This document shows, one piece after another, positions 46,509 through 63,801 of a stretch of DNA of 64,000 nucleotides. How positions within the stretch are numbered: position 1 is the stretch's first letter; every line of letters begins with the position of its first letter. The notes below the pieces were generated by a model. It had not been told where the DNA came from. It saw only the letters and a program-made list of their open reading frames with translations, and did not search any database. The translations under genes were made by a program, and so were the position numbers. This stretch comes from Acidobacteriota bacterium (GTDB taxonomy: Bacteria; Acidobacteriota; UBA6911; RPQK01; JAJDTT01): NCBI GenBank assembly GCA_965217775.1, contig CBDCJH010000002.1:1760001-1824000 (forward strand). Direction: 5' to 3'.

Positions 46509-46615
46509 GGAAAAAGGGGACAGTCTCGTTTCCAGCAGCAGCGTTCGCCGGTTGCCCAACGCCCCCCGAAGGGGACAGTCGAAGTGAAAAAGGGGACAGT
46601 CTTTTTTCCGGGACG
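46509..46615 (+). repeat. Three GGGACAGTC hairpin-motif copies (cores at 46517, 46572, 46593)
   Basis: GGAAAAAGGGGACAGTCTCGTTTCC; GAAGGGGACAGTC; GAAAAAGGGGACAGTCTTTTTTCCGGGACG. Confidence 0.85.
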
Positions 46616-47809: not shown

Positions 47810-47839
47810 CCCGCATTTCTCAGCGGGGGGCGTGATGAT

Positions 47840-47891
47840 GACGGGGGAAAAAAGGGACGGGAAAAAGGGGACAGTCTATTTTTCCGGGACG
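47840..47891 (+). repeat. GGGACAGTC motif copy (core 47868) with an upstream stutter
   Basis: GACGGGGGAAAAAAGG-GACGGGAAAAAGGGGACAGTCTATTTTTCCGGGACG. Confidence 0.85.
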
Positions 47892-48105
47892 GAAGACACA
47901 GGGCAGACCACAAAGGTGTCGGCTCCTTCGCCTGCAAAGACAACTGAGGTGGTCACTTGGTCAAGTTTCCTCGGATGCTTCCGGAAACGCGAGATTTGCT
48001 GATTTTCTTGAGTTTCCTTCGCCTTTCTTAGTTCTGAATCGTTGTGGTCATCAGAGGTGCGAACCTATCCGCGCCGCGCCGAGTCCGAGTCGTTAACCGA
48101 GGACC

Positions 48106-49047
48106 GTGGCCATGGCCCGAACCGCACGACACAAAAGCACAGAAGCCGCCTTCTATCACCTCACCAATCGAGTCGCCGGCAATTCCGATTGGTTCCCCTT
48201 TAAAAACCACCAAGCCGGTCGCAAACTCCTGGACATGATGTCGTTCTACGTCAATGTCTACCGGTGTCGTTTGGCCGCTTTCCAGATCATGGGCAATCAC
48301 TTCCACTTCGTCATCCATTTTGAGAAACCCCGCCCCCTGTCCCGCGACGAGTTGATGGACAGCGCCCACAAGCTTTATGGACAACAGGCAGAGAAGAAAA
48401 CCGCCGATTGGACCGTCGCCCAGTGGGAGGCTTTCAACCAGCGTCTCTTTGACGTGTCGAAACTGATGGCGAACGTGGACGGGTTCTATGCCCGGTGGTT
48501 CAACCGCAATTTCGGACGACGAGGCCATCTTTGGGGTGATCGTTTCAAGAACCCGGAACTCTTGGGAAGCGAAGCCGTCCAGGACGCCATCCTCTACGTG
48601 GAACTCAATGCCGTCCGGGCCGGACTGGTCAAAAGGCCCGAGCAATGGCAGTGGGGCTCGGCCCGCTGGAGACTCACCGGCGAGGATCAAGATCTGATTC
48701 CACTGGAGGAACTGTTCCCCTCGGATCCCGGAGCGGACGTGTACAGAAGTTACCGGGCTCGCTTGTACTATCGAGGAGCCGTCCCCACCCGGGAGAACCA
48801 GGCTGCGATCCCCCGGTGGATCCTCCTTCAGGAGCAGCGACGTGGATTTACCCGTGCCGGAGCCTTTCTCCGGCGTTTGCGATTTCTGACGGACGGGTTG
48901 GCCGTCGGTCCGGCAGAGAAGGTGGCGCAGTTGCTGGAGACGTATCGAAAGCAAGGTCGATATCGGCGTCGCCGACACCCCATCCCCCAACTGGGCGGAG
49001 TGCTGTTTTCCCTGCGGGAGCAGCGCTCCCACGCCTTCGTCTCGTAG
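48106..49047 (+). mobile_element. RAYT-type (TnpA-REP / IS200-like Y1 HUH) transposase with a C-terminal extension
   Basis: FYHLTNR, MGNHFHFV (HUH), GHLWGDRFK, YVELNAVRAGLV (catalytic Tyr), WQWGS; tail RLRFLTDGLAVG. Confidence 0.88.
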
Positions 49048-49196
49048 ACTCGCCTGATCGCCGACCGTCGATTCTGCCACTCCGGCACCGAACGACCCAG
49101 ATCACGGGAACCACCCAATAGACTGAATTGTCCTCTTAGTGTGTGGAAAGTCCTCCGGACTTCCATCCATTTGCCATGGGTTCACTGCTCTGCTTC

Positions 49197-49290
49197 CGCA
49201 GTCTCTCGCAGTCTCTTCTCAAGACTGTCCCTTTCTGTCTCGACGGCTACCAGACGGCTACCAGACGGCTACCACAAGGGTCGCCCCGAC
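49197..49290. repeat. GACTGTCCC motif (49223) with tandem stutters and a REP-like end
   Basis: CGCAGTCTCT x2; AAGACTGTCCCTTTC; GACGGCTACCA x3 (49242-49274) running into CAAGGGTCGCCCCGAC. Confidence 0.8.
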
Positions 49291-49302
49291 GAACGGTGTC
49301 CC

Positions 49303-50061
49303 CTAGTCGTCCCGGAAACGATCGGCCGTGTCCTGCGGTTCGTATCCCAGGTCCCTCCGGGCGTTGTCCAGTGACCGGTAGTTCCACTTGTTGTCGGAGA
49401 CCACGTAGTAGATCCCGAACTTCAGATCCTCAGGCGCATCGATGCAGCGGCGGATCATCTGGGCGATGTCCGCGTGACTGCACCAGACCGAGAAATCCCG
49501 AACCTCGTTGGGCCGGTCGTTGTAGTGGACGCGGCCGATGCGGAGAGAGATCATGGACAGGCCCCATCGGTCGGAGAAGAACCGGGCCAACGTTTCGCCG
49601 AACGCCTTGCTGCAACCGTAGAGGCCGTTGGGCCGAATCAGCGACGTGTCCACCAAGTCCCAACCGGTCACCTCCTCGTACCGTCCCTCGACCAGGGCAG
49701 CGTAGGGCGGATGCCGTTCCCACTCGCTGACGGCGGCTCCGCTGCTGGCGAAAACAACCCTCTCGACACCCGCCGTCCGGGCCGCCTCGAACACGTTGTA
49801 GGTGCCGACGATGTTGTGCGGGAGCACGTCCTCCCAGGTGGGGTCCCCCTGGGCCATGGCGGCCAGGTGGACGACGGTCTCCACTCCCTCGAAGGCCGGC
49901 CGGATGGCCTCCAGATCGGCAATGTCCGCCTGCAGGCACGGGAGGCCCTCCACCGGACGCCGGTTCAAGGCGCTCAGCTCGTACGCATCTCCCAGTTCCC
50001 GCCGGCAAACCTGCCCGATGAGTCCGCTCATGCCCGTGATCAACACTCTTTTTTTGGCCAT
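49303..50061 (-). CDS. NAD-dependent epimerase/dehydratase (uronate dehydrogenase-like)
   Basis: TGMSGLIG, VHLAA, NIVGTYNV, YGCSK, SLRIG. Confidence 0.85.
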   Translation of the reverse strand: MAKKRVLITGMSGLIGQVCRRELGDAYELSALNRRPVEGLPCLQADIADLEAIRPAFEGVETVVHLAAMAQGDPTWEDVLPHNIVGTYNVFEAARTAGVERVVFASSGAAVSEWERHPPYAALVEGRYEEVTGWDLVDTSLIRPNGLYGCSKAFGETLARFFSDRWGLSMISLRIGRVHYNDRPNEVRDFSVWCSHADIAQMIRRCIDAPEDLKFGIYYVVSDNKWNYRSLDNARRDLGYEPQDTADRFRDD

Positions 50062-50199
50062 GCGGCGATTCTACCGCAGGGCCTCCCAACTCCGCCTGCC
50101 GGGTTTTACCGCCGGTTTTCATTCCCACTTCCAGCCCCTATGATGGGCTCTCGTCTCAACACCCAATTGAATCGGCATCCGGCGAAAGGGAGCGGCAAC

Positions 50200-50934
50200 A
50201 TGTTTCGAAACAAAATCCTCGAGAGAATCAAGAGAGGCGAGAAGGCTCTGGGCCTGTTCATGTCGGACCCTTCCGAAGAACTGGTGGAAATGGCCGGGCG
50301 CATGGGGCTGGATTTCGTCGGCTTCGACGGCCAGCACTCGCCCCTCACTCCGGAACGGGTCGGCACCCTGTGCACCATCGCGGACGGGTTCGACGTCACT
50401 CCCACCATGCGCGTCCCCGATGGGAATGAAAGCACGCTACTGTCCTATTTGGACCGTGGGATCCGCGGCATCACGGTTCCCAACATCCAGACCCGTGAAG
50501 AAGCCGAAAAACTGGTCAAATACACCTATTTCGCACCGCTGGGCCTGCGCAGCTCCACCAGCTACCGCATGGTCATGAACCAGGACGGAAAGGACCGCAA
50601 CACCCTCTTCCAGGAAGTCAACGCCAACCTGATGATCGTCCCCCAACTGGAGAGCGTGACTTCAATCCGGAATTTGGACGAGATCCTTCAGGTGGAGGGG
50701 ATCGACTACCTCGGAGGCGGCCCCGAAGACATGGCCCAGTCCATGGGGATTCCGGGCCGGCATGACGATCCCAGGGTGACCCGGATCTACAAGGAGATGG
50801 AACAGAAGGTCCATGCCGCCGGAAAGCTCATGGCGGGAGACTACATCGAGTCGGTGAACGTCTTCTGGAACGTCAAGGGCGCATTGGAGCAACTGCTTGA
50901 AAGCCACGGCCGCCGCTCTCGCATGACCTGGTAG
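50200..50934 (+). CDS. HpcH/HpaI aldolase/citrate lyase family protein
   Basis: GLDFVGFDGQH, RVPD, LDRGIRGITVP, PLGLRS, QLES, GPEDMAQSMG. Confidence 0.85.
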   Translation: MFRNKILERIKRGEKALGLFMSDPSEELVEMAGRMGLDFVGFDGQHSPLTPERVGTLCTIADGFDVTPTMRVPDGNESTLLSYLDRGIRGITVPNIQTREEAEKLVKYTYFAPLGLRSSTSYRMVMNQDGKDRNTLFQEVNANLMIVPQLESVTSIRNLDEILQVEGIDYLGGGPEDMAQSMGIPGRHDDPRVTRIYKEMEQKVHAAGKLMAGDYIESVNVFWNVKGALEQLLESHGRRSRMTW

Positions 50935-50950
50935 TGAAGACCCCCACCCC

Positions 50951-51904
50951 GTGAAGTACGTCGTCAATCTGCCCATCGCCGGCCCTCTGGCGACTCCCCG
51001 CAGTCTCTCGGCTCTCGCTCGAACCGCCGAGGCCCAGGGAGTCGACATCATCTCCTCCAGTGAGCGCCTGGTCCTGCCCTGCTCCGTCGAGACCCGCTAT
51101 CCGTACGGCGCCACGGGCAAGTTTCCCGGCGGAAGCGGCAGCCAGAAGAGCCTGGAGATGCTGATGACCCTGGCCTTCCTCTGCGGCCAGACCTCCCGGG
51201 TCCGCATCCTGACCTCGGTCCTGGTCCTGCCCTACCGGGATCCGATCCTGGCGGCCAAGATGCTGGCCACCCTGGACGTCCTCTCCGAAGGCCGGCTCAT
51301 CGTGGGCTGCGGCGTCGGCTGGATGCGGGAGGAGTTCGAAGCCCTGGGCCTGCCGGTCCGATTCGAGGACCGGGGCCGCGCCTCGGACGAGTACCTGAGG
51401 GGCATGCAGGAACTCTGGTGTAGCGAGAACCCTGAGTTCAAAGGCAACCACGTCCGTTTCTCCGGGATCGAATTCCATCCCCAGCCGGTACAGCGGCCTC
51501 ATCCGCCTTTCTGGTTCGGCGGCGAGAGCCCCGCGGCCCTCCGGCGCGTCGCCCGCTTCGGAGACGGATGGATGCCCATCGCCGGAAACCCGCGCCATCC
51601 GCTGGACGACGACCGGCAACTCGCCCGGGCGATTGAAAGACTGCGCCGAATGGTGGAGGCCGAAGGCCGGGACCCGGACAAGATTCACGTCCGGTTCGGC
51701 GGAGGGTGGAACGAGTCCCCGCGCCCGGGCCCGGCAGGAGAGAGACTGCCCATGAGCGGCACGGTCCAGCAGGTGGCCGGAGACATCCGCCGCTATCAGG
51801 ATCTGGGAGTCGACCACCTGGGAGTGGGTCTGTTGACGGAGGACCTGTCCGAGAGCCTGGAACGGATCGAGCGCTTCATGACCAGTGTCGTGCCGGTGGT
51901 CTAG
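50951..51904 (+). CDS. LLM-class flavin/F420-dependent oxidoreductase
   Basis: TSVLVLPYRDPILAAKMLATLDVLSEGRLIVGCGVGWMREEF; PVQRPHPPFWFGG. Confidence 0.9.
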   Translation: MKYVVNLPIAGPLATPRSLSALARTAEAQGVDIISSSERLVLPCSVETRYPYGATGKFPGGSGSQKSLEMLMTLAFLCGQTSRVRILTSVLVLPYRDPILAAKMLATLDVLSEGRLIVGCGVGWMREEFEALGLPVRFEDRGRASDEYLRGMQELWCSENPEFKGNHVRFSGIEFHPQPVQRPHPPFWFGGESPAALRRVARFGDGWMPIAGNPRHPLDDDRQLARAIERLRRMVEAEGRDPDKIHVRFGGGWNESPRPGPAGERLPMSGTVQQVAGDIRRYQDLGVDHLGVGLLTEDLSESLERIERFMTSVVPVV

Positions 51905-51917
51905 GAACTTGCGCGAT

Positions 51918-53150
51918 TCACACTCTCAGGAAGATCCTCCGCCGATACATCCACCAGCAGACCAGCCAGAACGTGAGCCCCACCATCACCGACTCGAGGG
52001 CGGGCTCATTGGCGGCTCCCCAGAGCTGGGAGATGTTCTGCCCCAGGTGTGTCCGCAAGGTTGCTGCGGTCCAGTCGGGTAGAAGCATGCTCATCGAGTA
52101 GATCGCTATGGAGTTGGTTCCCACCACCACCAGAGGGAAGGTCCAGCGACGGATCCTGGCGATGTCAATCAGGACGTAGAGTCCTCCCAGGATCAGGCAG
52201 CACCAGCCCGTCGAAAAGATTGCCCAGGAGGGTGTCCAGATCCGCTTGACAAGTGGACAGACACCCGTCCAATCGAGGATCAGCCCTACGGTCAGACCGA
52301 GAATCCCCGCTGCCAGAAGTGTTCTGAGCTTGGTTCTGGCCGAGCGGTGCGAGCGCAGGAACCCGCCCACCATCAGGCCGAAAAGCATGGTGGCCAGGGA
52401 GGGAATAAAATTGATGGTCTGATACCCTCCTCCGTTGTGGACGAACGGCTCCTGGCGTGGCAACTGGTTCAGCAACCAGCCGTCAACGGCATGACCGACG
52501 TTGGCGTTCTTATGCCAGGCTGGAGACACTTCCGCCAGATGTCGCTGAGCCCACTCCGGTTGAACACCCACCTCAGGCGAGCCGCTCGGAAGCTCGACAC
52601 CGGCTCCGGGATACAGGACGTACAACATCCAGGTCAGGATCAGGACGAACACTGCCCCAAGGGCCTGACTTCGAATTCTTCGACGCCAGAACAAAAAGAG
52701 GAAGGTGTAGCCCAGCCCGATCTGCGTCAGGACATTCATCAGTGACCAATTGGTGCCGGAGAGCGAATCGGAAATCAGGAAGATGCCCAGAAGGATGAGG
52801 ACGGCGGATCTCCCGAGGGCGTGGCGCAGCATCTTGCCGTACGAGTGCCCCAGTCCCGATCGTTTGGCATAGGAGTAGGCCATCGACACTCCCACCATGA
52901 ACATGAAGGAGGGTTGGATCAGATCCCAGTAGCCACATCCGGTCCAGGGGACGTGGGAAAACTGGTAATGAACCGTCTGCCAGAAGGAAGAGTCCGGGTT
53001 GGTTGCCAGATGATTCTCGGCCGTCTCCCTGAGACCGAAACCCTTGAAGGCGAGGGAGACCATGATCAGTCCACGATAGGCGTCAAGAGACAGCAACCTC
53101 TGTTGCTGCCGGTTGCTTTTCGCGACCTCGGATTCACCGTGGGATCCCAC
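51918..53150 (-). CDS. Membrane acyltransferase (DUF5009 / HGSNAT-like)
   Basis: RLLSLDAYRG, WDLIQPSFMFMVG, VKRIWTPSW, GTNSIAIY, MYRRRIFLRV. Confidence 0.88.
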   Translation of the reverse strand: MGSHGESEVAKSNRQQQRLLSLDAYRGLIMVSLAFKGFGLRETAENHLATNPDSSFWQTVHYQFSHVPWTGCGYWDLIQPSFMFMVGVSMAYSYAKRSGLGHSYGKMLRHALGRSAVLILLGIFLISDSLSGTNWSLMNVLTQIGLGYTFLFLFWRRRIRSQALGAVFVLILTWMLYVLYPGAGVELPSGSPEVGVQPEWAQRHLAEVSPAWHKNANVGHAVDGWLLNQLPRQEPFVHNGGGYQTINFIPSLATMLFGLMVGGFLRSHRSARTKLRTLLAAGILGLTVGLILDWTGVCPLVKRIWTPSWAIFSTGWCCLILGGLYVLIDIARIRRWTFPLVVVGTNSIAIYSMSMLLPDWTAATLRTHLGQNISQLWGAANEPALESVMVGLTFWLVCWWMYRRRIFLRV

Positions 53151-53640
53151 GAACGCCCCTCCGTCGAGTCGACATCAACAATCTACGATGATCAGCATGC
53201 TGGCACCGTCCGCATGGTGATTCAACTGACCATGGATGGCCTTTCTGCTGCTCAGTATCCCGGTGTGGCGAGCTTTTCTGTGCCGTTAGGCCCAATTCCT
53301 CGTCACCGACACGAAAATCGATTTGTTTAAAAGCATTTCAGTGGTTTTCTCAGCCATATGAATTCAAGCGCTGCCCTGCCGGCTCGAATGCGGTGATGAA
53401 AGCCGAAATCCGGCGATGTCCAGGGGTATTCGACCTTTCACGGGCACTCGTGAGCGATGGTTCTCCCCCAAGAGCCGGCTCCAGGGCAGAGTCCGTCCCG
53501 CAGACTTCCAACTTGGCGTCTTCCCAACGGCGGGTTCGCGGTAACAGCGAAGCGGATGGGTTTGCACTCGGGCCAGAACCGTCCGCAACCATGCCGCGTA
53601 CGGGTAGCTCTCGGAAAACGACAACCAGACCTTGCTCGCA

Positions 53641-53711
53641 CGCACACACAGAGAGGAGGTGCGCACACACAGAGAGGAGGTGACCAGAGAGGAGGTGACT
53701 GTCCCTTTCTC
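53641..53711. repeat. GACTGTCCC motif (53697) preceded by tandem stutters
   Basis: CGCACACACAGAGAGGAGGTG x2, then CAGAGAGGAGGTGACTGTCCCTTTCTC. Confidence 0.85.
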
Positions 53712-53914
53712 ATTCTGGTTTTTTGCGGGGAACACCACAGGAAAGAGTCCCCCTCGGCATCGGTCGGAATCCCCTGTCGCCTCTCTCGTGGCCGTTGTCC
53801 GCCGGTTCTGGTCCCCCGGGGCGACCGTTGGTATTCTCCAATGCACGCCTGACGGGTGGGGAAGTGCCCAGGACACGCCGTACCCATCCGGTCTAGGCTG
53901 GATCAGGAGTCCGT

Positions 53915-56290
53915 ATGATCAGTCCTCTACTTAGCTCATTCTCGAGTTCGTTTTTTGCTGGGTGGCTGTTTTTCGTTCTGTCACCGACGCAAACTGGCGG
54001 CCCCCCGTCAGAGAACGTCCGCCGACAGGCGGACGACTCGATTGTCCGACAGGAGCAGGAAGAGAAGGTTCTATACTTCCCGGATTATGTGGATGGCGGG
54101 GGCTGGTCGGTGCAACTAGTGCTCAGCAACGTCGACCCGAACGCCGCCGCCGAGATCCGGGTGGAAGTCTACGACCCGGACGGACAAAACCTTCGGGATC
54201 TATTCGATTCCGATTTGACGTTGGAGATTCCGGCGCTGGGCACTCGAGTCTTGAGAAGCGCCGGTTCAGGAGCCATTCGGCGGGGTTGGATCCGGATCGA
54301 GACCGATGCCGGCACCGTCAGTGGATTGTTGACCTACCGGCACGCCCAATCAGGGATCGAAGTCGTCGTCGAGCCCGCCCAATTGGGGAAGGAGTTCGCT
54401 CTGTTCGTGGAGGAATCAGAGACCGTCGGGGCGGGACTGGCCCTCTTCAAACCGGATGCGGAATCCAGGATCGAGGTGAGACTGCGCGACGAGGAGGGGA
54501 ACGATCCGTTGAACGGATTGTTCGTCCCCTGGGGGGATTTCCACCAGGCGGCGCGCACGCTCCCGGAATGGTTCGCCGTTGAAGGAATTGATATGGGATT
54601 TCTGGAGGACTTCCACGGCTTCCTGTTCCTACGAAGTGAGGACGGCACCCCCTTCGCTCCGCTCGGGCTGCGGTTCGGGAAGCGGACCTCTTCACTCTCG
54701 GCGGTGCCGGCGATTCGGGTCCCGGACGGAGGCGGGAACGACGGTGGCCATCCACCCCCGCCGACATCGATCGATCAGGGTCAGAGCACGACGTTGACGT
54801 GGCCGTCGACGAGTGCGGCGAGTGCGGAGATCACCCCGGACATCGGCGTGGTGCCCACTTCGGGTTCGCGGAAGGTGTCGCCGGACGTCACCCCGCCCTG
54901 CCACATCAACGTAACAGGGGCCGACGGACAGACCGCCATGGCGTCGGTCACGGTGACCGCCCTGACGGAATGTGATCGGGTCGGCGTCCCGGTCGAGCCG
55001 GTATCCGGAGAGCCGGCGGCCGCGATCCGCATTGTGGCAGGCGAGGGGCAACGCGCGTTCACCGAGCGCACCCTCGACAAGCCCCTTGTAGTTCGCGTTC
55101 TCGACACGTCAGATCTGCCTGTTTCCGGGGTGGCCGTGAACTTCGTACCAACGCCGGAAAGCGGTCGGGTGGATCCCTCGACCGCAGCCACGGATTCGAA
55201 CGGCGAGGTCGCGGTGGAGTGGACCATGGGCTCCGCGGCCGGTATCCAGACGCTCATAGTCGCCGCAGGCCTGGCTATTACGGGTGTCAACGTCTACGCG
55301 ATCGACCTCGAGTCCGAACTCGACAACGTTTTTGCCGCGCCGACCGCCGCGGAGATCGAGGCCGTTCGTGCAGACTGGGCCGCGCGTGACATCTCTGCGG
55401 TTGACGTGTTCGTTGAATTCACGGAGACGTATCCCCTGGGCGAAACCCCGGCGACCCTGCGCGTGGTGTCGCATCAGGTCGGGGAGGTGCGCCACTACGG
55501 GGCGATCCTTGCGCCCGACTCTGCGGCACCCGGGACGCTGCCCGTCCTGATGTACCTGCACGGCGGCGACAGCGGTGTCGACGTGGGCGACATCGATATC
55601 GTCGGGTATTCCTTGGGCGAGCTGCGAGACAGCTTCGTCTACGTAATCCCGTCTTTTCGCAGCGAACGGCTTGAATATGGCGATAGCGTGTGGGTCTCGA
55701 CCGGATCTGGCGGTCACTGGGACTACGATGTGGACGACGCCCTGGCGCTCTTGAACGTGGCTCTGGAGCTGACTCCGCAGGCGAAGTCCGAAGGTGTGAG
55801 CATCGTCGGCGGAAGTCGTGGAGCGGGCGTCGCCATGCTGGCCGGCATCCGCGACGAGCGCATCGAGAACATCGTCGCCTTCTTCGGTCCCACCGACTTC
55901 TTCGACGACTGGGTGCGGCAAATCGTGCGCGAGGCGGTCCTGGGGCGTCCGCGCCAGCTCACGGGCGTGGCCCACATGGACTCCACTTTCGTTCAGCCCT
56001 ACATGAGAGGCGAGATCGAACTGGCTGAGTTGCGCCTGGAGTTGGTGCGCCGCTCCTCCGTCCTGTTCGCCGAAGACCTGCCGGGCGTCCAGCTGCACCA
56101 TGGCGATTCCGACGAGACCGTCGCCGTCAGCCAAGCGTACTCGATGATCCGTACCATGGAGGCCTTGGGACGCGAGCCTCCCGAGTTCGAGGCCTTCATC
56201 TACGAGGGTGGAGGACACGAGGTGTTCGGTCTAAGGGGTGCCATTCCGCGGGCGGTGCGGTTCCTGTGGCGTGCCCTGGGAAGGGAATAA
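53915..56290 (+). CDS. Exported multidomain protein: beta-sandwich, Ig-like domains and an S9-like alpha/beta hydrolase
   Basis: YFPDYVDGGGWSVQLVLSN; GVAVNF..TDSNG (Big_1-like); YLHGG, GGSRG nucleophile, HGDSDETV, YEGGGH. Confidence 0.75.
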   Translation: MISPLLSSFSSSFFAGWLFFVLSPTQTGGPPSENVRRQADDSIVRQEQEEKVLYFPDYVDGGGWSVQLVLSNVDPNAAAEIRVEVYDPDGQNLRDLFDSDLTLEIPALGTRVLRSAGSGAIRRGWIRIETDAGTVSGLLTYRHAQSGIEVVVEPAQLGKEFALFVEESETVGAGLALFKPDAESRIEVRLRDEEGNDPLNGLFVPWGDFHQAARTLPEWFAVEGIDMGFLEDFHGFLFLRSEDGTPFAPLGLRFGKRTSSLSAVPAIRVPDGGGNDGGHPPPPTSIDQGQSTTLTWPSTSAASAEITPDIGVVPTSGSRKVSPDVTPPCHINVTGADGQTAMASVTVTALTECDRVGVPVEPVSGEPAAAIRIVAGEGQRAFTERTLDKPLVVRVLDTSDLPVSGVAVNFVPTPESGRVDPSTAATDSNGEVAVEWTMGSAAGIQTLIVAAGLAITGVNVYAIDLESELDNVFAAPTAAEIEAVRADWAARDISAVDVFVEFTETYPLGETPATLRVVSHQVGEVRHYGAILAPDSAAPGTLPVLMYLHGGDSGVDVGDIDIVGYSLGELRDSFVYVIPSFRSERLEYGDSVWVSTGSGGHWDYDVDDALALLNVALELTPQAKSEGVSIVGGSRGAGVAMLAGIRDERIENIVAFFGPTDFFDDWVRQIVREAVLGRPRQLTGVAHMDSTFVQPYMRGEIELAELRLELVRRSSVLFAEDLPGVQLHHGDSDETVAVSQAYSMIRTMEALGREPPEFEAFIYEGGGHEVFGLRGAIPRAVRFLWRALGRE

Positions 56291-56356
56291 AGTAGCTTAT
56301 GGGGCTGACCTTTTGCCGGAGTTGGAGGAATCTTTCGGAGAGGGAGGTGACGTCAC

Positions 56357-56683
56357 GTGAAAACACGCCGCAAGTTCCCCGCCGGTACAGTCCTCGTCAC
56401 GGCGATCCTGGGGGCAGTTTCTCTCAGCCCATCCAGAATGGCGCACGCGGGACCCGAGGAGTACGAGCGCGTCTATTGGGACAAGGGAGACGCGAGGAAG
56501 GTCATCGCCCGCGCGACAGCAATCGACATGGGGAACACCAGTGAGATGCTCCTTCGCATCACTGCAGCCGCATTCAATACCGAACCGAACAGAGACGAGA
56601 CCACTTCTGGCGTCTGGCTCACAGACGACGTCTGCTGGTCACTGGCTATTCTTGTGCAAGAGGAATTAACGACGGACCGATGA
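56357..56683 (+). CDS. Exported hypothetical protein, possibly frameshifted near its end
   Basis: GGAGG RBS, signal peptide ending in AHA; an alternative frame continues TDEEKEKFYESF. Confidence 0.4.
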   Translation: MKTRRKFPAGTVLVTAILGAVSLSPSRMAHAGPEEYERVYWDKGDARKVIARATAIDMGNTSEMLLRITAAAFNTEPNRDETTSGVWLTDDVCWSLAILVQEELTTDR

Positions 56684-57812
56684 GGAGAAGGAGAAATTTT
56701 ACGAGTCCTTCGTGGAAACGGGTGCATGCCGTGAAGCCCGACACCCCGCCCGAGCACCGGGATTGGTATCCGCAGGGGACAGACTCACCGACAACCGAAA
56801 CGGAACAAATGAAGCGACCTTATGATGCCTAAAAAGAATCTTCGAGGTGACCGCTGGGATACGGATTCGATGATTTGGAACGCCATTCGTATACGGGTCG
56901 TTGCCCGAGCTGTTGTGGTCTCATCGGGATTCCCATACCTACTGGACGCACCTCCACGAAAAGCGTTGGGGCGTGTTTCGAACCAGTGAACTCAGTCAGG
57001 CCTTAACGGTGATACTCAACGCCTACAGTAAGCGGTGGGGCGATTCCGCCTATAGCGCGGACACTTATGGGTGAGTCGCCTGCCGAGAGACAAGCCTGCG
57101 CTGCCCCGTCGCTGAAGAGGATTCTGCGTCGCCTCCTCTGTGGTGGAGCCTTTTCCTCCGCTGGATCGCAGTAACGTACTTTATCGACATTAATTCGAGG
57201 CCCCCGCCGCAGACCAATCCGGGCCGCCCACCCTCCACGCGGGGACTCCGCAAATCCGGCCGGCCCCGTAGAGGGCCTCTGCCGCGTCGGCTCCAGGCGC
57301 GCCCGCGCCCGGCCGGGCCGGATTTGGCCGGAACGGGGGATTTTCGGAAGATCCGGAGAAGAAAACGCGCTCAGAGGGCCTGTGCCGGCCTGGCGAGCCC
57401 GGACCAACGGTTAGGTGATAGGCCCTGGAGCTACACCCAGGCTCCGCCAGCGTCTCGCGGCGGAGGGGGAATTTTGCAGAACGGGCGCGCGGGTATTTTG
57501 TGGTCCGAGAGATCTGGACCTCGAGCGGTCTGAGAAACGCGATCCTGCTTCCGGAACTCGGCCGGGGATTCGTTTGTTTCCAGGGGGTTGCGGAAGCGTA
57601 CATCGTTCGCTCGAATGAATAATCCCCGCTCTCTGACTTGATACACAGGCCTCCGGCGGTCCGCGGCGGCCGGGGGGAGCTCCACCGGGTCAATTTGGAC
57701 GTCTCCGAGACCCTGCAGGGCCGACTTGAGGCGTGGAGTCCGCCCGATTTTGGCGAAAATCGGCCTACAGGACCTCGCTGACGACAGAACCTGACTCCGC
57801 CGGCGTTGGATC

Positions 57813-58151
57813 ATGTCTGAAACGATGCGAAAACGCCGGAAGCTCAACACCAGAGCCGGCCGGCTGGCGGCCCGCGAGCGAGTCCGTCAACTGGTGAGTG
57901 AGCACGATGACCAGATGGTGCTCCTGGTCTGGGGTGGCCGAGTGCTCGGCTGGTCGCTCCGCCGGATCGCAGCGGCCCTGGAGGGGTCAGTAGCTCCCCC
58001 CGGCCGCCGGGCGGGGTACGCGGCCGGGAAGTGGACGGCAGCCGCTGTCCAGCGGATTTGCCGCCGCCACGGCATTCCCACGGACCGGCCCGCCGAGCCG
58101 CCCCGTGCGTTCCTCGCGGACGTGAGGGGTTCTGAAGCGCGGGATTACTGA
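57813..58151 (+). CDS. Small protein with a serine-recombinase-type DNA-binding (recombinase) domain
   Basis: GWSLRRIAAALE...PPG......GKWTAAAVQRI. Confidence 0.5.
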   Translation: MSETMRKRRKLNTRAGRLAARERVRQLVSEHDDQMVLLVWGGRVLGWSLRRIAAALEGSVAPPGRRAGYAAGKWTAAAVQRICRRHGIPTDRPAEPPRAFLADVRGSEARDY

Positions 58152-58251
58152 ATCAGCGGAATGTTTGACTCCAAGGTGAAACTCCGGCCCGAGATCAGCA
58201 TCTAAGGGGAGGTCGATCACCCACGCATCCGGACCCGCGAGGAGGACCACC

Positions 58252-58590
58252 ATGGCGAGACCCACCGATGAGATCATGAACGGGCAAAGAGTGGTCCACG
58301 TCGAGAACGAGGACGAATTCTTCTACTACTCCGATCGGGGTCCGATAACACTTTCCCGCGAGCTGGCGGAATCCCTGGGCTTCAGGGAATACCCCGGCTC
58401 CGCGGAAGAACTGCACGCCGAGGAGTGGGAAGAGACATTGAACGGCGAGCGGGAGTGGGAGGAGTTGCAGAAAGAATGGGCCGAAGAGGAGCGGCGGGCC
58501 GAACACCCGACGGACCCCTCCAGCCCCTTCTATGAAAGAGATGACCGCCCCCTGGCTGTGGTGATCCCGTTCCCAACCAGGGTCCAATAA
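58252..58590 (+). CDS. Acidic hypothetical protein
   Basis: GAGGAGG RBS, ATG start, Glu/Trp-rich. Confidence 0.55.
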   Translation: MARPTDEIMNGQRVVHVENEDEFFYYSDRGPITLSRELAESLGFREYPGSAEELHAEEWEETLNGEREWEELQKEWAEEERRAEHPTDPSSPFYERDDRPLAVVIPFPTRVQ

Positions 58591-58604
58591 AATCAACTTA
58601 TTCT

Positions 58605-58663
58605 GAGAAAAGGTGACTGTCCCCTTCTCGGTCCTCGTCCCCTTCTCGGTCCTCGATCCCCTC
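58605..58663. repeat. GACTGTCCC motif (58615) with a downstream stutter
   Basis: GAGAAAAGGTGACTGTCCCCTTCTC; GTCCCCTTCTCGGTCCTC x2. Confidence 0.88.
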
Positions 58664-58765
58664 ATTTTTCCCAACCCGGTGAGCCCCTTCCGACGAGAAA
58701 TTCACATCTTCTGATGTGGAGCCGCTAATGAGGAGCGGAGTCACTCCATGGCAGTAGGAGGCACC

Positions 58766-59287
58766 ATGATGATTATTCTGACGATGAAATCGAGCCGGAC
58801 TCAGATCCTCGCCTTGTTCCTGGTGGGACTGACCTTCCAGCCGGCGCACGCGGAGGTGATCCCGGGACGCTGGGAGAAGGTCTCCGCCTTGGAAATGGCA
58901 TCAACCGTCACGGTGGAACTGAAAAACGGGGATCGAATTAAGGGCCAGTTCCGAGGCTTGGTGCCATCAGCTCTGGAACTCCGGAGCCCCGCTGGCCGGG
59001 CAGTGATTCCAAAATCGGACATCCAGATGATTGCCACTCTGGCGAAGGATGGTCTGGGCAACGGAGCCGGGATTGGAGCCGCGGTCGGGGCCGGCCTTGG
59101 ACTCGGGGCCTTCGTCCTCGCTGCTCGTACTCGAGGTGGTTTGGATTCGGCACCGGGGACTTTGTTGACCATTGGCGGAATCGGAGCAGGCATAGGGGCC
59201 GCAATAGGCGCGGCTGCCGATGCCGCCACGAAGGGCGAGACCATCGTACTCTACAAAGCCCCTGGAAGTTCTCAGCGTTCCAAATGA
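58766..59287 (+). CDS. Exported glycine-zipper hypothetical protein
   Basis: AGGAGG RBS, signal peptide ending in AHA; GAGIGAAVGAG and GIGAGIGAAIGA. Confidence 0.7.
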   Translation: MMIILTMKSSRTQILALFLVGLTFQPAHAEVIPGRWEKVSALEMASTVTVELKNGDRIKGQFRGLVPSALELRSPAGRAVIPKSDIQMIATLAKDGLGNGAGIGAAVGAGLGLGAFVLAARTRGGLDSAPGTLLTIGGIGAGIGAAIGAAADAATKGETIVLYKAPGSSQRSK

Positions 59288-59432
59288 AGGGGTTCGGAGT
59301 GGTGGCTACCCGATCCGCCGGCAGCCGAGACGCAAACAGCGAACCTTTCAAAATGATGGGGAATTGGCGGTTCTCTTCGGGAACGTCTATGTCCATTAAC
59401 GAAGTTAACGGAAGCACAGGGGTTCGACCCAT

Positions 59433-59557
59433 CAGATGTCGGGGACATCCGCCGCTACCAGGATCTCGAAGTCGACCACCTGGGAGCGGGTCTGTTGACG
59501 GATGACCTGTCCGAGAGTCTGGACCGGATCGAGTGCTTCATGACCACCGTGGCGCCG
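59433..59557 (+). pseudogene. Degenerate duplicate of the LLM oxidoreductase 3' end (51770-51904)
   Basis: GACATCCGCCGCTA...GTCGACCACCTGGGAG...CTTCATGACCA nucleotide similarity. Confidence 0.9.
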
Positions 59558-59559
59558 GG

Positions 59560-59997
59560 GGGGCTCCATTTTTAGAACCGGCATTCGTAGTGAAGGACCC
59601 GGCGTCACTGCCGCGTTCCACTGGGGAGTACGAGATCATCGGGCGAACCGGTGACGGGGACGTGTTGTTCTCGCTTCCATTCCAGATGCCGGAGGTGGCC
59701 GACGGAGATGGGAGATCCTCCTTCGCTTTCGTTCTGCCTGTGCAGCCAGAATGGGCCGATCAGTTGGCCAGCATCACCCTGTCCGGACCCGGTGGCTCGG
59801 TCACGCTGGATCAGGACACCAACCGCCCGGTCACTATCCTGCGAAATCCGCGGACCGGGCAGATTCGTGCCATCCTGCGCGGCGCGGCGGCCGCCCCCGA
59901 AAGCGTGGACGCCACAGTGTCGGCGCTGTCATTGGACCCGGGATTGGAGAGGTTGACCAGCCGCGGAATCCCGGACCCGGAAGGCTGGACACAATAA
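59560..59997 (+). pseudogene. C-terminal fragment of a large exported protein
   Basis: Reading frame PFLEPAFVV...SRGIPDPEGW starts abruptly, fused to the LLM fragment, with no RBS or signal peptide. Confidence 0.6.
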
Positions 59998-60075
59998 TAG
60001 AGGCGGATCGTTCACCCGGAGAACGAACTCCGTAAATTGACGTCCGTTAACTGCAATTAAAAAGGAAGCAGCGCA

Positions 60076-60129
60076 GCGAAAAGGTGACTGTCCCCTTCGC
60101 ATTCGCATTCGCATTCGCATTCGCATTCG
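60076..60129. repeat. GACTGTCCC motif (60086) followed by (TTCGCA)5
   Basis: GCGAAAAGGTGACTGTCCCCTTCGC, then TTCGCA x5. Confidence 0.88.
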
Positions 60130-60187
60130 GGGTCCCATGGAGAAGGTACTGGCGCTCTGCAAGAAGTACGGCGTGGCCTTCGGAACC

Positions 60188-60591
60188 CTACTTTGTGATC
60201 CCGCCAGATTGCCCCCAGCCGGTCGCTTGGCGCTCCCCCCCTTTGTGGTACTCCACTGATACATTGAACGCAGAACCAAAGACATGGGCGCTCACGTATA
60301 GAACTGGCCCGTCTGTCTTGGCTCGGTCATAAGGATCCGAGTAGAGGCCGACTGGCCGCAAGTGCGTTACCGCCGCCAGCCAGAGGCGATGCTCGGTTAA
60401 ACCAATTTTCCTCGCATCGTTGCTCAAGCGTTTCACCACTACTGCCATGGGACGGCAGGCGTTGTACAGCCTCCTCCGGTCCTGGTCGTTAATATGCTGG
60501 CCTTGATGGGGCCGAGCTGAAATACCGCGAAAACAGCGAGTGCAACGAACCAGGTTGGGAGTCTGACGGGCCGGCGATTGCGGGGACTCAT
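60188..60591 (-). pseudogene. Frameshifted exported hypothetical protein
   Basis: Signal peptide MSPRNRRPVRLPTWFVALAVFAVF in one frame; mature-like LYNACRPMAVVV...VSVEYHK in another. Confidence 0.45.
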
Positions 60592-60684
60592 GCGGTGGAA
60601 CCCTACTACACCCTCTCCCGTGGTCGGCATCATTCCATTCGTGACGGTTTACGGATATCATAAAGCTAGGTACTCTGGCGGTTC

Positions 60685-60963
60685 ATGATCCGAAGTTTCA
60701 GCGACCGAAACACCCGGCGCTTCTTCGAGGGCCGTCGGGTGGGAGCGTTCCAGGGATTCGCAGATCAGGCCGTGCGCCGTCTCACCCTGTTGGACAACGC
60801 GGAGTCCCTTCGAGACTTGGCCGGGTTGCCCAGCAACCGTCTGGAAGCGCTTCGGGGCAACCGGGCCGGCCAGTTCAGCATCCGGATCAATGCGCAGTGG
60901 CGAATCTGTTTTCGTTGGGGAGAGGATGGACCCTACGAAGTCGAGATCGTGGACTATCACTGA
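60685..60963 (+). CDS. higB: HigB/RelE-family toxin
   Basis: MIRSFSD..T..FF, PSNRLEALRGNRAGQFSIRINAQWRICF, VEIVDYH. Confidence 0.92.
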   Translation: MIRSFSDRNTRRFFEGRRVGAFQGFADQAVRRLTLLDNAESLRDLAGLPSNRLEALRGNRAGQFSIRINAQWRICFRWGEDGPYEVEIVDYH

Positions 60964-60973
60964 GGAGGTCGAG

Positions 60974-61315
60974 GTGACGAGCTTTAAAAATGGGATGCGA
61001 CCGGTGCATCCGGGAGAGATCTTGCGGGACGAGTTGGATGCGCTTGGCTTGTCGGCCAATGCGCTGTCGAAGGCACTGGGCGTGCCCGTGAATCGAATCA
61101 CGGCGATCCTGAATGGGCAGCGGGGTGTGACGGCCAACACGGCATTGCGCCTGGCGCGCTACTTCGGGACGACCCCGCAGGTTTGGCTGAATCTGCAGAA
61201 GACGTGGGAGCTGCGGCGGGAAGAGATCAGCGTTGGGAGCTTGATTGCCGAACGCGTCCAGCCCCGGCAAACGATGACGCCGATTGAAGTGACCAGTGTC
61301 GACACCCGATCCTGA
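60974..61315 (+). CDS. higA: HigA antitoxin (HTH)
   Basis: PVHPGEILRDEL, LGVPVNRITAILNGQRGVTANTALRLARYFGTTPQVWLNLQ. Confidence 0.92.
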   Translation: MTSFKNGMRPVHPGEILRDELDALGLSANALSKALGVPVNRITAILNGQRGVTANTALRLARYFGTTPQVWLNLQKTWELRREEISVGSLIAERVQPRQTMTPIEVTSVDTRS

Positions 61316-61435
61316 GTAAATGTCCGGTCAACTGTTCACCCAGTATTTTCTCACCGACGTCATAAAGACCACCTTTGAATGGAGAGCGTCACTCGCCCAA
61401 CCGGAGGACTTCCTCCAGTTCCGAGACAGAAGACG

Positions 61436-62095
61436 ATGATAACCACCAATGTCATCCAGCGGACCTTCTTCGTCAAGATCGGTAATATGACAGGCACTGC
61501 GTTCACCATTGACCGCAACGGTAGGCAATACCTCGTGACGGCCCGCCATATTGCTGGTGGCGCAGTGCAAAGCATGGAGGTCTTCCACAATGGCCGGTGG
61601 ACGTCGCTTAGTGTAAACGCCGTAGGCATTGGACGGAACGACGTCGACGTAGCTGTCTTCGCGCCCAATGTCATATTGTCGCCGCCACATCTTCTAGAGG
61701 CGACCTCTGCTGGATTGACCTACGGACAGCCAGTTTCCTTCCTCGGGTTCCCTTTCGATTGGCAAGGAGGCTTGGCCCACATGAACAACGGTTTCCCGTT
61801 TCCGTTCGTGAAGGCTGGAATCGTAAGTGCACCGCCCAGCCACCGGATTTGGACCGACACCCACGGCAACCGAGGGTTCAGCGGCGCCCCGGTGGTATTC
61901 AAATCGCTATCTGGCGCCGGCAACTCGCCATGGAAGGTCGCGGGCATCGTTGTTAAATCAAAGCCCGATCCTCAGACAGGCGGGAACGCTGGATTCGTCA
62001 TTGCTGAACCAATCAAGGCTGCGACAGCCTTGATGGACGAAAGGCCTATCGGAGCTACAATGTTCGGCGGAACTGCCTCCGGCAAGACATCCTGA
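61436..62095 (+). CDS. Trypsin-like serine protease
   Basis: GTAF, LVTARH (His), DVAV (Asp), FLGFP, GNRGFSGAPV (Ser); no signal peptide. Confidence 0.8.
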   Translation: MITTNVIQRTFFVKIGNMTGTAFTIDRNGRQYLVTARHIAGGAVQSMEVFHNGRWTSLSVNAVGIGRNDVDVAVFAPNVILSPPHLLEATSAGLTYGQPVSFLGFPFDWQGGLAHMNNGFPFPFVKAGIVSAPPSHRIWTDTHGNRGFSGAPVVFKSLSGAGNSPWKVAGIVVKSKPDPQTGGNAGFVIAEPIKAATALMDERPIGATMFGGTASGKTS

Positions 62096-62123
62096 TTAGA
62101 CCTTGCCGGGCGACGATTCACAC

Positions 62124-62158
62124 AGAGAAAAGGTGACTGTCCCCTTCTCACCTTTTCG
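62124..62158. repeat. GACTGTCCC motif (62135) with an inverted stutter
   Basis: AGAGAAAAGGTGACTGTCCCCTTCTCACCTTTTC; TCACCTTTTC is the reverse complement of GAAAAGGTGA. Confidence 0.88.
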
Positions 62159-62725
62159 AGAGGGAAGGTCCAGCGACGGATCCTGGCCACGTCAATCAGG
62201 ACGTAGAGTCCTCCCAGGATCAGGCAGCACCAGCCCGTCGAAAAGATTGCCCAGGAGGGTGTCCAGATCCGCTTGACAAGTGGACAGACACCCGTCCAAT
62301 CGAGGATCAGTCCTACGGTCAGACCAAGAATTCCCGCTGCCAGAAGTGTTCTGAGCTTGGTTTGGGCCGAGCGGTGCGAGCGCAGGAACCCGCCCACCAT
62401 CAGGCCGAAAAGCATGGTGGCCAGGGAGGGAATGAAGTTGATGGTCTGATACCCTCCTCCGTTGTGGACGAACGGCTCCTGGCGTGGCAACTGGTTCAGC
62501 AGCCAGCCGTCAACGGCATGACCGACGTTGGCGTTCTTATGCCAGGCTGGAGACACTTCCGCCAGATGTCGCTGAGCCCACTCCGGTTGAACACCCACCT
62601 CAGGCTAGCCGCTCGTAAGCTCGACACCGGTTCCGGGATACAGGACGTACAACATCCACGTCAGGATCAGGACGAACACTGCCCCAAGGGCCTGACTTCG
62701 AATTCTTCGACGCCAGAACAAAAAG
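62159..62725 (-). pseudogene. Near-identical 567-bp duplicate of acyltransferase segment 52132-52698
   Basis: Colinear nucleotide match with scattered substitutions; bounded by motif copies at both ends. Confidence 0.93.
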
Positions 62726-62804
62726 CGCAGAGCAAAGGTGACTGTCCCCTTTTCGCGACCCGCCCGTCACGCAGAGCAAAGGTGACTGTCCCCTTTTCGC
62801 GACC
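62726..62804. repeat. Two direct 35-bp repeats containing the GACTGTCCC motif (62740, 62784)
   Basis: CGCAGAGCAAAGGTGACTGTCCCCTTTTCGCGACC at 62726-62760 and 62770-62804. Confidence 0.9.
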
Positions 62805-62981
62805 GGTGGGTCATGCGCTGTGCGAACGGAGACATCTACGACGTTTCTTATGTGAAGGGGGAGGAGCGCAACCGAACGATCCGGAAACTGCAACAGTGAC
62901 ACCTTCCGGGGGATGTAACGAGGCAGTTTCTACTGAAGCGGATCTATCTTGCAATTGATCGTCGAACCGCTGGGAGGATGA

Positions 62982-63452
62982 ATGATCGACGAGCGGAAAC
63001 TAGCGGAACTCCTAATGCGTCCCTACAGACAGCGCATCATGAACAACGTCCACAGGTCGGAATACGTGGAGTGTCTGGTGGCTCTTGCGCTGGAGGACAC
63101 GTGGGAACGCCAAGAGCATTGGTCAGAGTACGATTTTAAACACAAGCGTTCCGGCAAGCGGCTCGAACTCAAACAGTCCGCCGTACGGCAAGCCTGGGAA
63201 CAAGCGGAGCCTTCGCAATCGCGATTCGAATTCAAGCCGCCCGGCACGACGGACATCTACCTCTTCGCTTGGCATGGGCACTGGCGAAACGCCGCCCACA
63301 GCGACATCATGCAGTGGCAGTTTTTCGTTGTCCCGGAACGGGACCTGCCAGAACAAAAGAGCATCGGCGTGAACCCGCTAACGGAGATCGTGGCGCCATG
63401 CACGTTTGAAGAACTGCGGGACGGAGCAGCAAGGGTAGAAGAATCACTCTGA
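62982..63452 (+). CDS. Hypothetical PD-(D/E)XK restriction-endonuclease-like protein
   Basis: RSEYVECLVA..., WSEYDF......RLELKQSA, DIYLFA, WQFFVVP. Confidence 0.6.
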   Translation: MIDERKLAELLMRPYRQRIMNNVHRSEYVECLVALALEDTWERQEHWSEYDFKHKRSGKRLELKQSAVRQAWEQAEPSQSRFEFKPPGTTDIYLFAWHGHWRNAAHSDIMQWQFFVVPERDLPEQKSIGVNPLTEIVAPCTFEELRDGAARVEESL

Positions 63453-63663
63453 CCTGCCAGCACGAGCGGACCGAGAAAGCTGAATGCCGAGCCCTTTACC
63501 GACGAACGCCTCGGCGAGGAGCTGCGAGTGGTGGCCACTGCCGGATGCCCTGAGTCGCGGTGCCCGTTGCCGTGACCGCCACCCCTTCTCTGAACAATGC
63601 CCGACAACCTGTCCGCGAGCGTCCCTTAACTGAAATTAACGGACGCACGGCGGCTCGGCCCAT

Positions 63664-63801
63664 CAGGTGTCCGGGGACATCCGCCGCTATCAGGATCTGG
63701 GAGTCGACTACCTGGGAGTGGTCCTTTTGACGGAAGATCTGTCCGAAAGTCTGGACCGGATCGAGCGCTTCATGACGACCGTGGCGCCGCTGGTCCAGTG
63801 A
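63664..63801 (+). pseudogene. Third copy of the LLM oxidoreductase 3' end (possible attR-side remnant)
   Basis: CAGGTGTCCGGGGACATCCGCCGCTATCAGGATCTGGGAGTCGAC...GCTGGTCCAGTGA. Confidence 0.9.

Follow-up and report, generated by a model that had tools for sequence, protein, structure and literature searches.

We analyzed a 64,000-nucleotide (nt) stretch of an Acidobacteriota genome (positions 1760001-1824000 of contig C2 of genome G000, which comprises 6.43 Mb in two contigs), hereafter called the window, which carries a Y1-HUH transposase gene of the TIRYT/RAYT-like type and 11 copies of a short near-palindromic motif. This motif is the terminal inverted repeat of a multi-copy TIRYT or 'TIRtron' Y1-HUH element, and it has also spread through the genome as about 250 solo copies. 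The motif is a true hotspot for tiny tandem duplications, referred to below as stutters, which are motif-specific, lineage-specific, present throughout the enzyme family and clustered in their breakpoints.

The motif has the core GACTGTCCCC, set in a weak imperfect palindrome of 23 nt with a purine-rich left side and a pyrimidine-rich right side. The core 10-mer occurs 148 times in the genome, against 24.5 expected occurrences, and a position weight matrix scan yielded 252 motif loci genome-wide. The scan drifted and matched both strands of the near-palindrome; its 480 matches were merged into the 252 loci, and their orientation was reassigned by the best match to the core 10-mer. Some of the 252 loci are paralogous, and thus they are not independent of one another.

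An exact tandem duplication was found within 25 nt of 49 of the 252 motif loci, compared with 46 of 2861 random non-coding positions, 8 of 404 other intergenic palindromes with 10-bp arms, and none of 39 composition-matched sites that lack the core. These counts bear out the expectation of a preliminary description of this DNA that tandem repeats are commoner beside the motif than in other intergenic DNA. Arrays detected by Tandem Repeats Finder (TRF) lie within 40 nt of 73 motif loci, versus a mean of 14.0 (standard deviation 3.6, maximum 26) in 200 draws of 252 random non-coding positions; the non-coding sets were defined by a crude purpose-made gene caller. Among the non-coding TRF arrays scoring at least 50, 42 of 162 are located within 40 nt of a motif. 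The excess of exact duplications is reproduced in two relatives, where it was observed at 23 of 81 sites (G005) and at 16 of 63 sites (G023).

Single strands of the motif fold weakly: of the six strands tested, five, from four window sites, gave -1.4 to -3.9 kcal/mol (z from +0.6 to -1.5), no better than shuffled sequences. The outer arms of the motif show no compensatory covariation, as pairing is clearly above column shuffles at no position and the A/G at -9 is independent of the C/T at +9 (positions here and below are relative to the central T); an initial impression that these arms covary was withdrawn once column shuffles had ruled it out. Since the motif folds poorly and the other palindromes show duplications at only the 8 of 404 sites given above, DNA structure alone is a poor cause, and a stable hairpin was rejected as the origin of the stutters. 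The data support the view that the stutters are tied to the Y1-HUH recognition motif, not to hairpins or low-complexity DNA in general.

All 11 motif cores of the window lie beyond 46.5 kb (46518, 46573, 46594, 47869, 49223, 53697, 58615, 60086, 62135, 62740 and 62784), and ten of them are stuttered, the exception being the core at 46518. The claim of the preliminary description that nearly every motif site carries its own duplication holds only locally, because genome-wide 94 of the 252 loci (37%) are stuttered by any of four criteria, with arrays, arm copies and neighboring motif copies counted together. All seven stutters that it listed are present at the places given for them, as found by TRF or, for the two at 62148 and 62727, by reading the sequence. 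It had also noticed no comparable repeats in the core part of the window; in fact TRF finds 18 arrays in positions 1-47322, but these score merely 31-45, against 49-84 for six of the eight arrays from position 47845 onward.

The leftmost group consists of three minus-strand cores (46516..46601; 46516, 46571 and 46592, corresponding to 46518, 46573 and 46594 in the above list), of which the last two are 21 nt apart. At the corresponding position G005 has a transposase copy. The motif upstream of the transposase gene (47867..47876, listed above as 47869, minus strand) has the exact 10-mer in inverted orientation; it is accompanied by an imperfect 14-nt duplication of the C-rich motif arm and its flank (47845..47872, minus strand; TRF period 14, 2.0 copies, 92% matches), which was scored as a right-arm half copy at +15 and of which a variant is present in G007. 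The motif downstream of the gene has a core variant ending in T (49223..49232) and, like all sites to the right of it, is on the plus strand. It is bracketed by two arrays with 100% matches in TRF, the 10-mer CGCAGTCTCT in two copies just outside its left edge (49197..49216) and the 11-mer GACGGCTACCA in three copies just outside its right edge (49242..49274).

Another core variant ending in T (53697..53706) is associated with two nested 5'-side duplications (53641..53699), which TRF resolves into a 21-mer in two copies at 53641-53682 and a 15-mer in two copies at 53670-53699; the latter ends one base before the central T (exact periodic region -30..-1). The core at 58615..58624, located 25 nt past the stop codon of a small open reading frame (ORF), is overlapped by an 18-mer in 2.4 copies (58619..58662; TRF score 79) that is made up of the C-rich arm and 7 nt of flank and starts at the G after the central T (exact periodic region +1..+37). 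Directly after the C-run of the core at 60086..60095, the hexamer TTCGCA is repeated 5.7 times (60096..60129; TRF score 68; periodic region +7..+40). The core at 62135-62144 is accompanied by an inverted copy of its left arm (62127..62157 in all), 62148-62157 being the exact reverse complement of 62127-62136 (10 nt); the segment 62124-62160, the sixth strand tested for folding, reaches -8.3 kcal/mol as single-stranded DNA (z -3.8). The last two cores, 62740 and 62784, belong to a duplication of the whole motif with a 44-nt period (62727..62804), in which a 34-nt string at 62727 recurs at 62771 (repeat family D3).

Breakpoints were determined from de-duplicated events pooled from G000, G005 and G023. 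Of the 40 duplications on the 3' side, 16 begin in the interval 0 to +3 that immediately precedes the C-run (binomial p 8e-6), and a further 13 begin where the right arm has its outer edge (+9 to +14). Of the 35 on the 5' side, 18 terminate between -16 and -11, where the left arm has its outer edge (p 9e-6), and another 6 terminate at -1 to 0. The preferred breakpoints are few, mirror-symmetric, a few nucleotides wide and non-random. A tolerant repeat finder detected fewer loci (41 vs 49 with the exact finder) and was used solely to view the peak at +1. A tabulation of start positions, by which the preliminary description had hoped to identify a fixed cut site, confirmed that starts cluster, but it yielded no single site: the starts occupy about 4 nt ahead of the C-run, with a second cluster at the outer edges of the motif. 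The partial motif copies are polarized, with half copies of the C-rich arm downstream of the motif at 23 sites and upstream at none, and left-arm-only copies upstream at 7 sites and downstream at 1. Microhomology, examined as a means of separating slippage from enzymatic joining, shows no difference, being 0 nt at 21 of 34 motif-adjacent duplications and at 199 of 335 duplications elsewhere.

At most of the 23 half-copy sites the copies of the C-rich arm are spaced by 12-23 nt, and in the window array the motifs follow stop codons by 25-90 nt. Both features would suit a selected function, by which half-site arrays are kept, in the manner of iterons, for binding the transposase or a regulator, or else tune termination after the upstream gene. 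We regard such a function as very improbable: unit lengths, sequences and copy numbers vary at every site and between orthologous sites, and many stutters hold only flanking DNA and no arm, with no conservation seen.

Comparison of orthologous sites supports the conclusion that the stutters are recent, turn over and differ between close relatives at the same places. The C-rich arm GTCCCTTTCT at the orthologous right end of the segment has one copy in the window, two in G007 and three, diverged from one another, in G006. The nearby 11-mer (49242..49274), with three copies in the window, has a single copy at the G007 site, as does the 10-mer (49197..49216), with two. The site at 53697, which carries two nested duplications in the window, is a single unstuttered motif in G006, and the corresponding spot of G003 consists of about 300 nt made up almost wholly of partial motif copies. 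In this extreme form of stutter (G003:C1, approximately 3898940-3899280; locus L003), overlapping right-half copies of the motif lie upstream of the ortholog of a gene for a 791-residue protein. Each of the 11 paralogous transposase gene copies of G000 likewise has different stutters next to its motifs. Perfect arrays account for 55 of 101 TRF rows near motifs and for 719 of 2862 genome-wide.

The same comparison bears on whether the stutters are artefacts of long-read consensus assembly at repeats, an explanation we consider hardly conceivable. Short-read-derived metagenome contigs match two stutter sites with 0 differences each, a contig of run X6 spanning 58368-58878 and one of run X8 spanning 61536-62188; these two runs may include the source sample. 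Five sister assemblies (G005, G023, G003, G006 and G007) display the same class of feature with other units, and differ at the same sites. Moreover, the stutter units are 6-44 nt long and are not homopolymers. The stutters are therefore real features of the DNA, as the preliminary description had supposed. As to the copy-number heterogeneity that it proposed to look for, no indel is listed at the stutters in Logan contigs, in which rare variants are dropped and no listed piece spans the 60096 array. Joints between motif copies in the metagenome contigs have sides shorter than 30 nt and look repeat-induced.

The transposase gene of the window (48106..49047, plus strand) encodes a protein of 313 amino acids and is one of 11 full-length copies in G000, which are 83-100% identical at the amino-acid level and are accompanied by two fragments. 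The protein matches the Pfam family PF01797 (Y1_Tnp) with 27.2 bits (cut-off 23) and the NCBIfam family REP_Tyr_transpos (NF047646) with 50.2 bits, below the cut-off of 80. The HUH residues H65-F-H67 and the tyrosine Y164 are invariant in an alignment of 40 sequences. The best Foldseek match of the structural model (pLDDT 80.5) is 4ER8_A, the E. coli REP-associated transposase (E 2e-6), whereas IS200/IS608 TnpA proteins match at about 2e-3. The protein is longer than the RAYT profile, which has 146 positions. Its residues 190-300 show conservation across the aligned sequences and are predicted to be mostly helical; residues 191-313 have no Pfam match at E-values up to 10. Homologs of the protein are named 'RayT' by JGI.

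In 9 of the 11 gene copies, a minus-oriented motif lies about 235 nt upstream and a plus-oriented motif about 210 nt downstream (gene orientation). The segment of the window that comprises the transposase gene, its two flanking motifs and their stutters (47813..49308) is absent at the orthologous site of G005, where the stop codon of a racemase-family gene directly abuts the 3' end of an epimerase gene. Contigs from three metagenome runs (X6, X11 and X8) likewise join 47810 to 49308. The segment missing in G005 reaches about 55-75 nt past both motifs; the exact ends of the mobile element are not definable from the paralogs, which lose homology in a variable zone around each motif.

Homologs with at least 73% identity were identified in exactly 9 of 41 related genomes, the same ones that have 19-122 motif matches (the nine are eight of the genus plus G000, and G023 of another family; the tallies include the unpublished G016, on which no conclusion rests). 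The remaining 32 genomes have homologs of at most 58% identity and at most 7 pattern matches. The sister genomes contain 2-11 transposase matches each. The two copies in G023 (C1:1471012-1471941 and 2594736-2595665) have 80% identity, as high as some copies within the genus, and the 57 motif matches of that genome are packed in a few dense arrays. These findings suggest horizontal transfer of the element, and the 11 gene copies and about 250 motif loci of G000, taken with the 80% identity in another family, suggest that it is active and transferable.

The stutter signature recurs across the enzyme family, down to 38% identity. We examined eight loci, 20 kb in all, of distant homologs (38-58% identity) from other genera and families, in which 6 of the 8 genes are flanked by inverted copies of a diverged motif; in a neighboring genus the core has one extra base and the C-run is kept. 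These loci contain 12 exact tandem arrays, 10 of which are no more than 30 nt from a motif, although the DNA that close to a motif makes up 6.7% of the total, and the right-hand duplications again start at or just before the C-run. Because the excess is motif-specific and family-wide, while more stable hairpins are unaffected, the enzyme is implicated in the origin of the stutters.

The reading that we favor, and to which we assign about even chances, is that stutters arise as by-products of an enzyme-made nick followed by short extension and rejoining. The transposase would nick a single strand, either within the motif or at its edge, and keep the 5' end through its tyrosine; a host polymerase would extend the freed 3'-OH by some 6-45 nt; and the new 3' end would then attack the tyrosine-linked 5' end. 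The outcome would be a tandem duplication whose starting point is the nick and whose far end varies, and repeated rounds, with later slippage inside the new repeats, could lead to 3-6 copies and to thickets. Nicking, extension of the 3'-OH by host polymerase and rejoining have already been proposed for BIME amplification in E. coli in the account of Ton-Hoang et al. 2012 (PMC3333891), and the 3'-OH of an added oligonucleotide is described as resolving the TnpA-REP tyrosine-DNA link (Corneloup et al. 2021, PMC8266576). Thus, of the earlier proposal that stutters are scars of nicking and rejoining or of slipped repair at HUH cut sites, the association with the motif, the variation between lineages, the clustering and the family-wide occurrence stand, whereas the cutting itself is conjectural, and slippage would fit the geometry equally well.

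Several observations weigh against an enzymatic nick. The start positions are fuzzy (8 at +1, 5 at +2, 2 at +3 and 2 at +4), where a protected 5' end should give one position, and no common sequence at the far ends of the duplications hints at a second cut. Microhomology does not discriminate. Events on the 5' and 3' sides are nearly equal in number (35 to 40), so that action on both strands would be needed, while the conserved C-run is on one strand only. A hairpin substrate is unproven, because the outer arms lack compensatory covariation, and the relatives IS608 and E. coli TnpA-REP are described as cutting outside their hairpins, not centrally (PMC3333891, PMC8266576). In addition, 158 of the 252 motif loci have no duplication at all. 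Finally, polymerase pausing at the edges or the center of a bound or folded site would be expected to give the same geometry.

This last point leads to slippage without cleavage, in which a bound transposase, another factor or a transient fold stalls the polymerase, and the nascent end realigns backwards so that a stretch is copied twice. Breakpoints at the outer edges and the center, mirror-symmetric and spread over a few nucleotides, are what pausing predicts, as is the near equality of the two sides; later expansions such as that of the TTCGCA array would be ordinary slippage, microhomology is no lower than at duplications elsewhere in the genome, and BIME-dependent stalling of a polymerase in vitro is reported in PMC3333891. 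However, intergenic hairpins of greater stability are not enriched for duplications, and the motif itself is a weak folder, so that slippage would still need a motif-specific protein, and the polarity of the half copies (23 downstream, none upstream) is unexpected for a symmetric roadblock. In our estimation slippage is possible but less likely than nicking and rejoining.

A further alternative to the nick-and-rejoin reading is cut-and-paste, in which short pieces cut out between the principal site and looser secondary ones go back in at a motif, or sister strands become joined out of register, so that the stutters would be mini-insertions. A model of this kind has been published for BIME diversification (PMC3333891, text to Fig. 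7A), motifs do occur at the joints of gene fragments in the window, and in G006 the right arm of the 53697 motif is followed immediately by about 150 additional nt. One such fragment is the segment 62145-62720, a 95% identical copy of 52118-52690 that lies between the motifs at 62135 and 62740. The source of this copy is an internal part of a gene for an acyltransferase-like membrane protein (51918-53150, minus strand), so that the copy is a gene fragment framed by two motifs. The stutters, on the other hand, are strictly tandem and in register with their source, and their far ends have no recurrent secondary-site sequence; we accordingly hold cut-and-paste to be improbable as their origin.

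With regard to known systems, the complement of the core, GGGGACAG, fits the box GGGG[AT][CG]A[CG] (PMC3733652, PMC6006769), and hence the system described here belongs to a known kind, which is distinct from the GTAG-tagged REPs. The name 'TIRtrons' is used by Di Nocera et al. 2013 (PMC3733652) for RAYT-like genes flanked by inverted repeats that share the box GGGGWSAS, and these authors single out a group from Acidobacteria; Quentin et al. 2018 (PMC6006769) equate the TIRtron proteins with subclass 2.1, which are long and have a C-terminal domain. The likeness extends to a RAYT-like Y1-HUH protein that is longer than RAYTs and has a conserved C-terminal extension, to a gene flanked by inverted repeats, and to the repeats themselves, which in the published account also form a moderately abundant dispersed family with dimers and clusters (PMC3733652). 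The differences are the short partial-arm stutters and the breakpoint mapping, which do not feature in the available portions of the published TIRtron accounts; the 11 gene copies, about 250 motif loci and 80%-identical copy in another family; and the published helix-turn-helix-like similarity of the C-terminal part, which was not recovered here (no Pfam match).

The REP and BIME systems of repetitive extragenic palindromes (E. coli TnpA-REP, Pseudomonas REPINs) resemble the present one in having a Y1-HUH enzyme flanked by cognate inverted repeats, and 4ER8 is the best structural match. Here, in contrast, the gene is multi-copy, so that single-copy vertical inheritance does not apply; there is no GTAG tag (13 of 216 sites vs 6 of 216 in a control window); the hairpin is weak, with no pair covariation; and the NCBIfam score is below its cut-off. 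Units of 6-44 nt, often of a single arm, also differ from whole REPs or BIMEs, and breakpoints are central as well as at the edge. The assertion that this footprint is foreign to classical REP/REPIN systems was nevertheless too strong, since REPs and REPINs reiterated in tandem along with their flanks have been described (PMC3116915, PMC3733652) and the nick, extension and rejoining model is in print (PMC3333891). For partial-arm stutters as such (6-44 nt units of arm and flank), no description was found in the main texts, supplements excluded, of the literature on these repeats as far as available.

The elements of the IS200/IS605 family (IS608, ISDra2) share the catalytic fold with the system considered here, which is likewise multi-copy and mobile, with an empty site in a sister genome. 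As characterized in the sources at hand, the subterminal hairpins of those elements share one orientation, and cleavage takes place outside the hairpins at guide-defined sites; the ends observed here are inverted copies of one motif (9 of 11 copies), and no crisp element boundary could be drawn.

In integrons, cassette boundaries (attC sites) follow small ORFs. A similar arrangement is seen at 58.6-62.8 kb, where co-oriented motifs follow small ORFs, including a HigB/HigA pair; the motif, however, is 23 nt long and tied to an HUH enzyme. The integron interpretation was rejected, as a search confined to the 17 ORFs of 46.6-63.5 kb found no tyrosine-recombinase domain.

Going one step beyond the nick-and-rejoin reading, it can be tentatively speculated, with distinctly less confidence, that the stutters are in vivo records of TIRYT catalysis: nicks would fall within the enzyme's own box, at the A/C/A step adjoining the G-run (complementary to the positions just ahead of the C-run), and aborted or reversed reactions would write the duplications. 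In that case TIRYT cleavage sites could be read directly from genomes, and TIRYT elements would be a built-in generator of new intergenic sequence and motif copies, and the source of thickets such as the block of about 300 nt in G003. TIRYT binding and cleavage assays are merely proposed by Di Nocera et al. (PMC3733652), and no TIRYT biochemistry was found in the available parts of this literature. A family-wide footprint with mapped breakpoints leads to a concrete prediction of the cut strand and positions and offers a cheap genomic read-out of activity. Should plain slippage at a bound site be the cause, the result would be ordinary, and the stutters would still be a useful marker of enzyme-occupied sites. 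They show one route by which short motif families diversify intergenic DNA, and they mark places of island gain and loss between strains.

One such island is located in the window. The DNA of G006 matches up to 53636 and resumes at 63612 after just about 900 bp; since G006 skips 53636-63612, about 10 kb constitute a strain-variable island whose left border is the stuttered 53697 motif. The island contains small ORFs without Pfam matches, a trypsin-like peptidase gene and the HigB/HigA pair (60685-61315). The matches of metagenome run X9 contigs to the window begin at 53715 and extend no further than 62155, breaking off where the right arm of a motif has its outer edge; the G006 assembly does the same at 53715. 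The last approximately 150 nt of a luciferase-like oxidoreductase gene are present three times, at 51756-51904, 59418-59566 and 63650-63798 (77% and 86% identity to the intact end). This triplication is reminiscent of displaced gene ends that repeated insertions at a single site have left behind.

Motif strand shows a weak bias with respect to replication direction, approximately 143 to 91 in a tally of 0.5-Mb bins, and the bias is clustered. The cumulative GC skew of contig C2 has its peak near 1.69 Mb and its minimum near 5.0 Mb; the window thus lies near the likely terminus. Within the window, the sign of the GC skew switches at about 53-54 kb, which is also where the motifs turn from minus to plus orientation.

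A second family of repeats carries the core 10-mer inside a different, G/C-rich palindrome, with GGGGGACAA before the core and CCTCC after it. It probably represents another element and, as far as checked, is outside the 252 loci. Examples on contig C2 of G000 are located at 179035, 825763, 1445675, 2132807, 2471408, 3528896, 3819081, 4176138 and 4379831.

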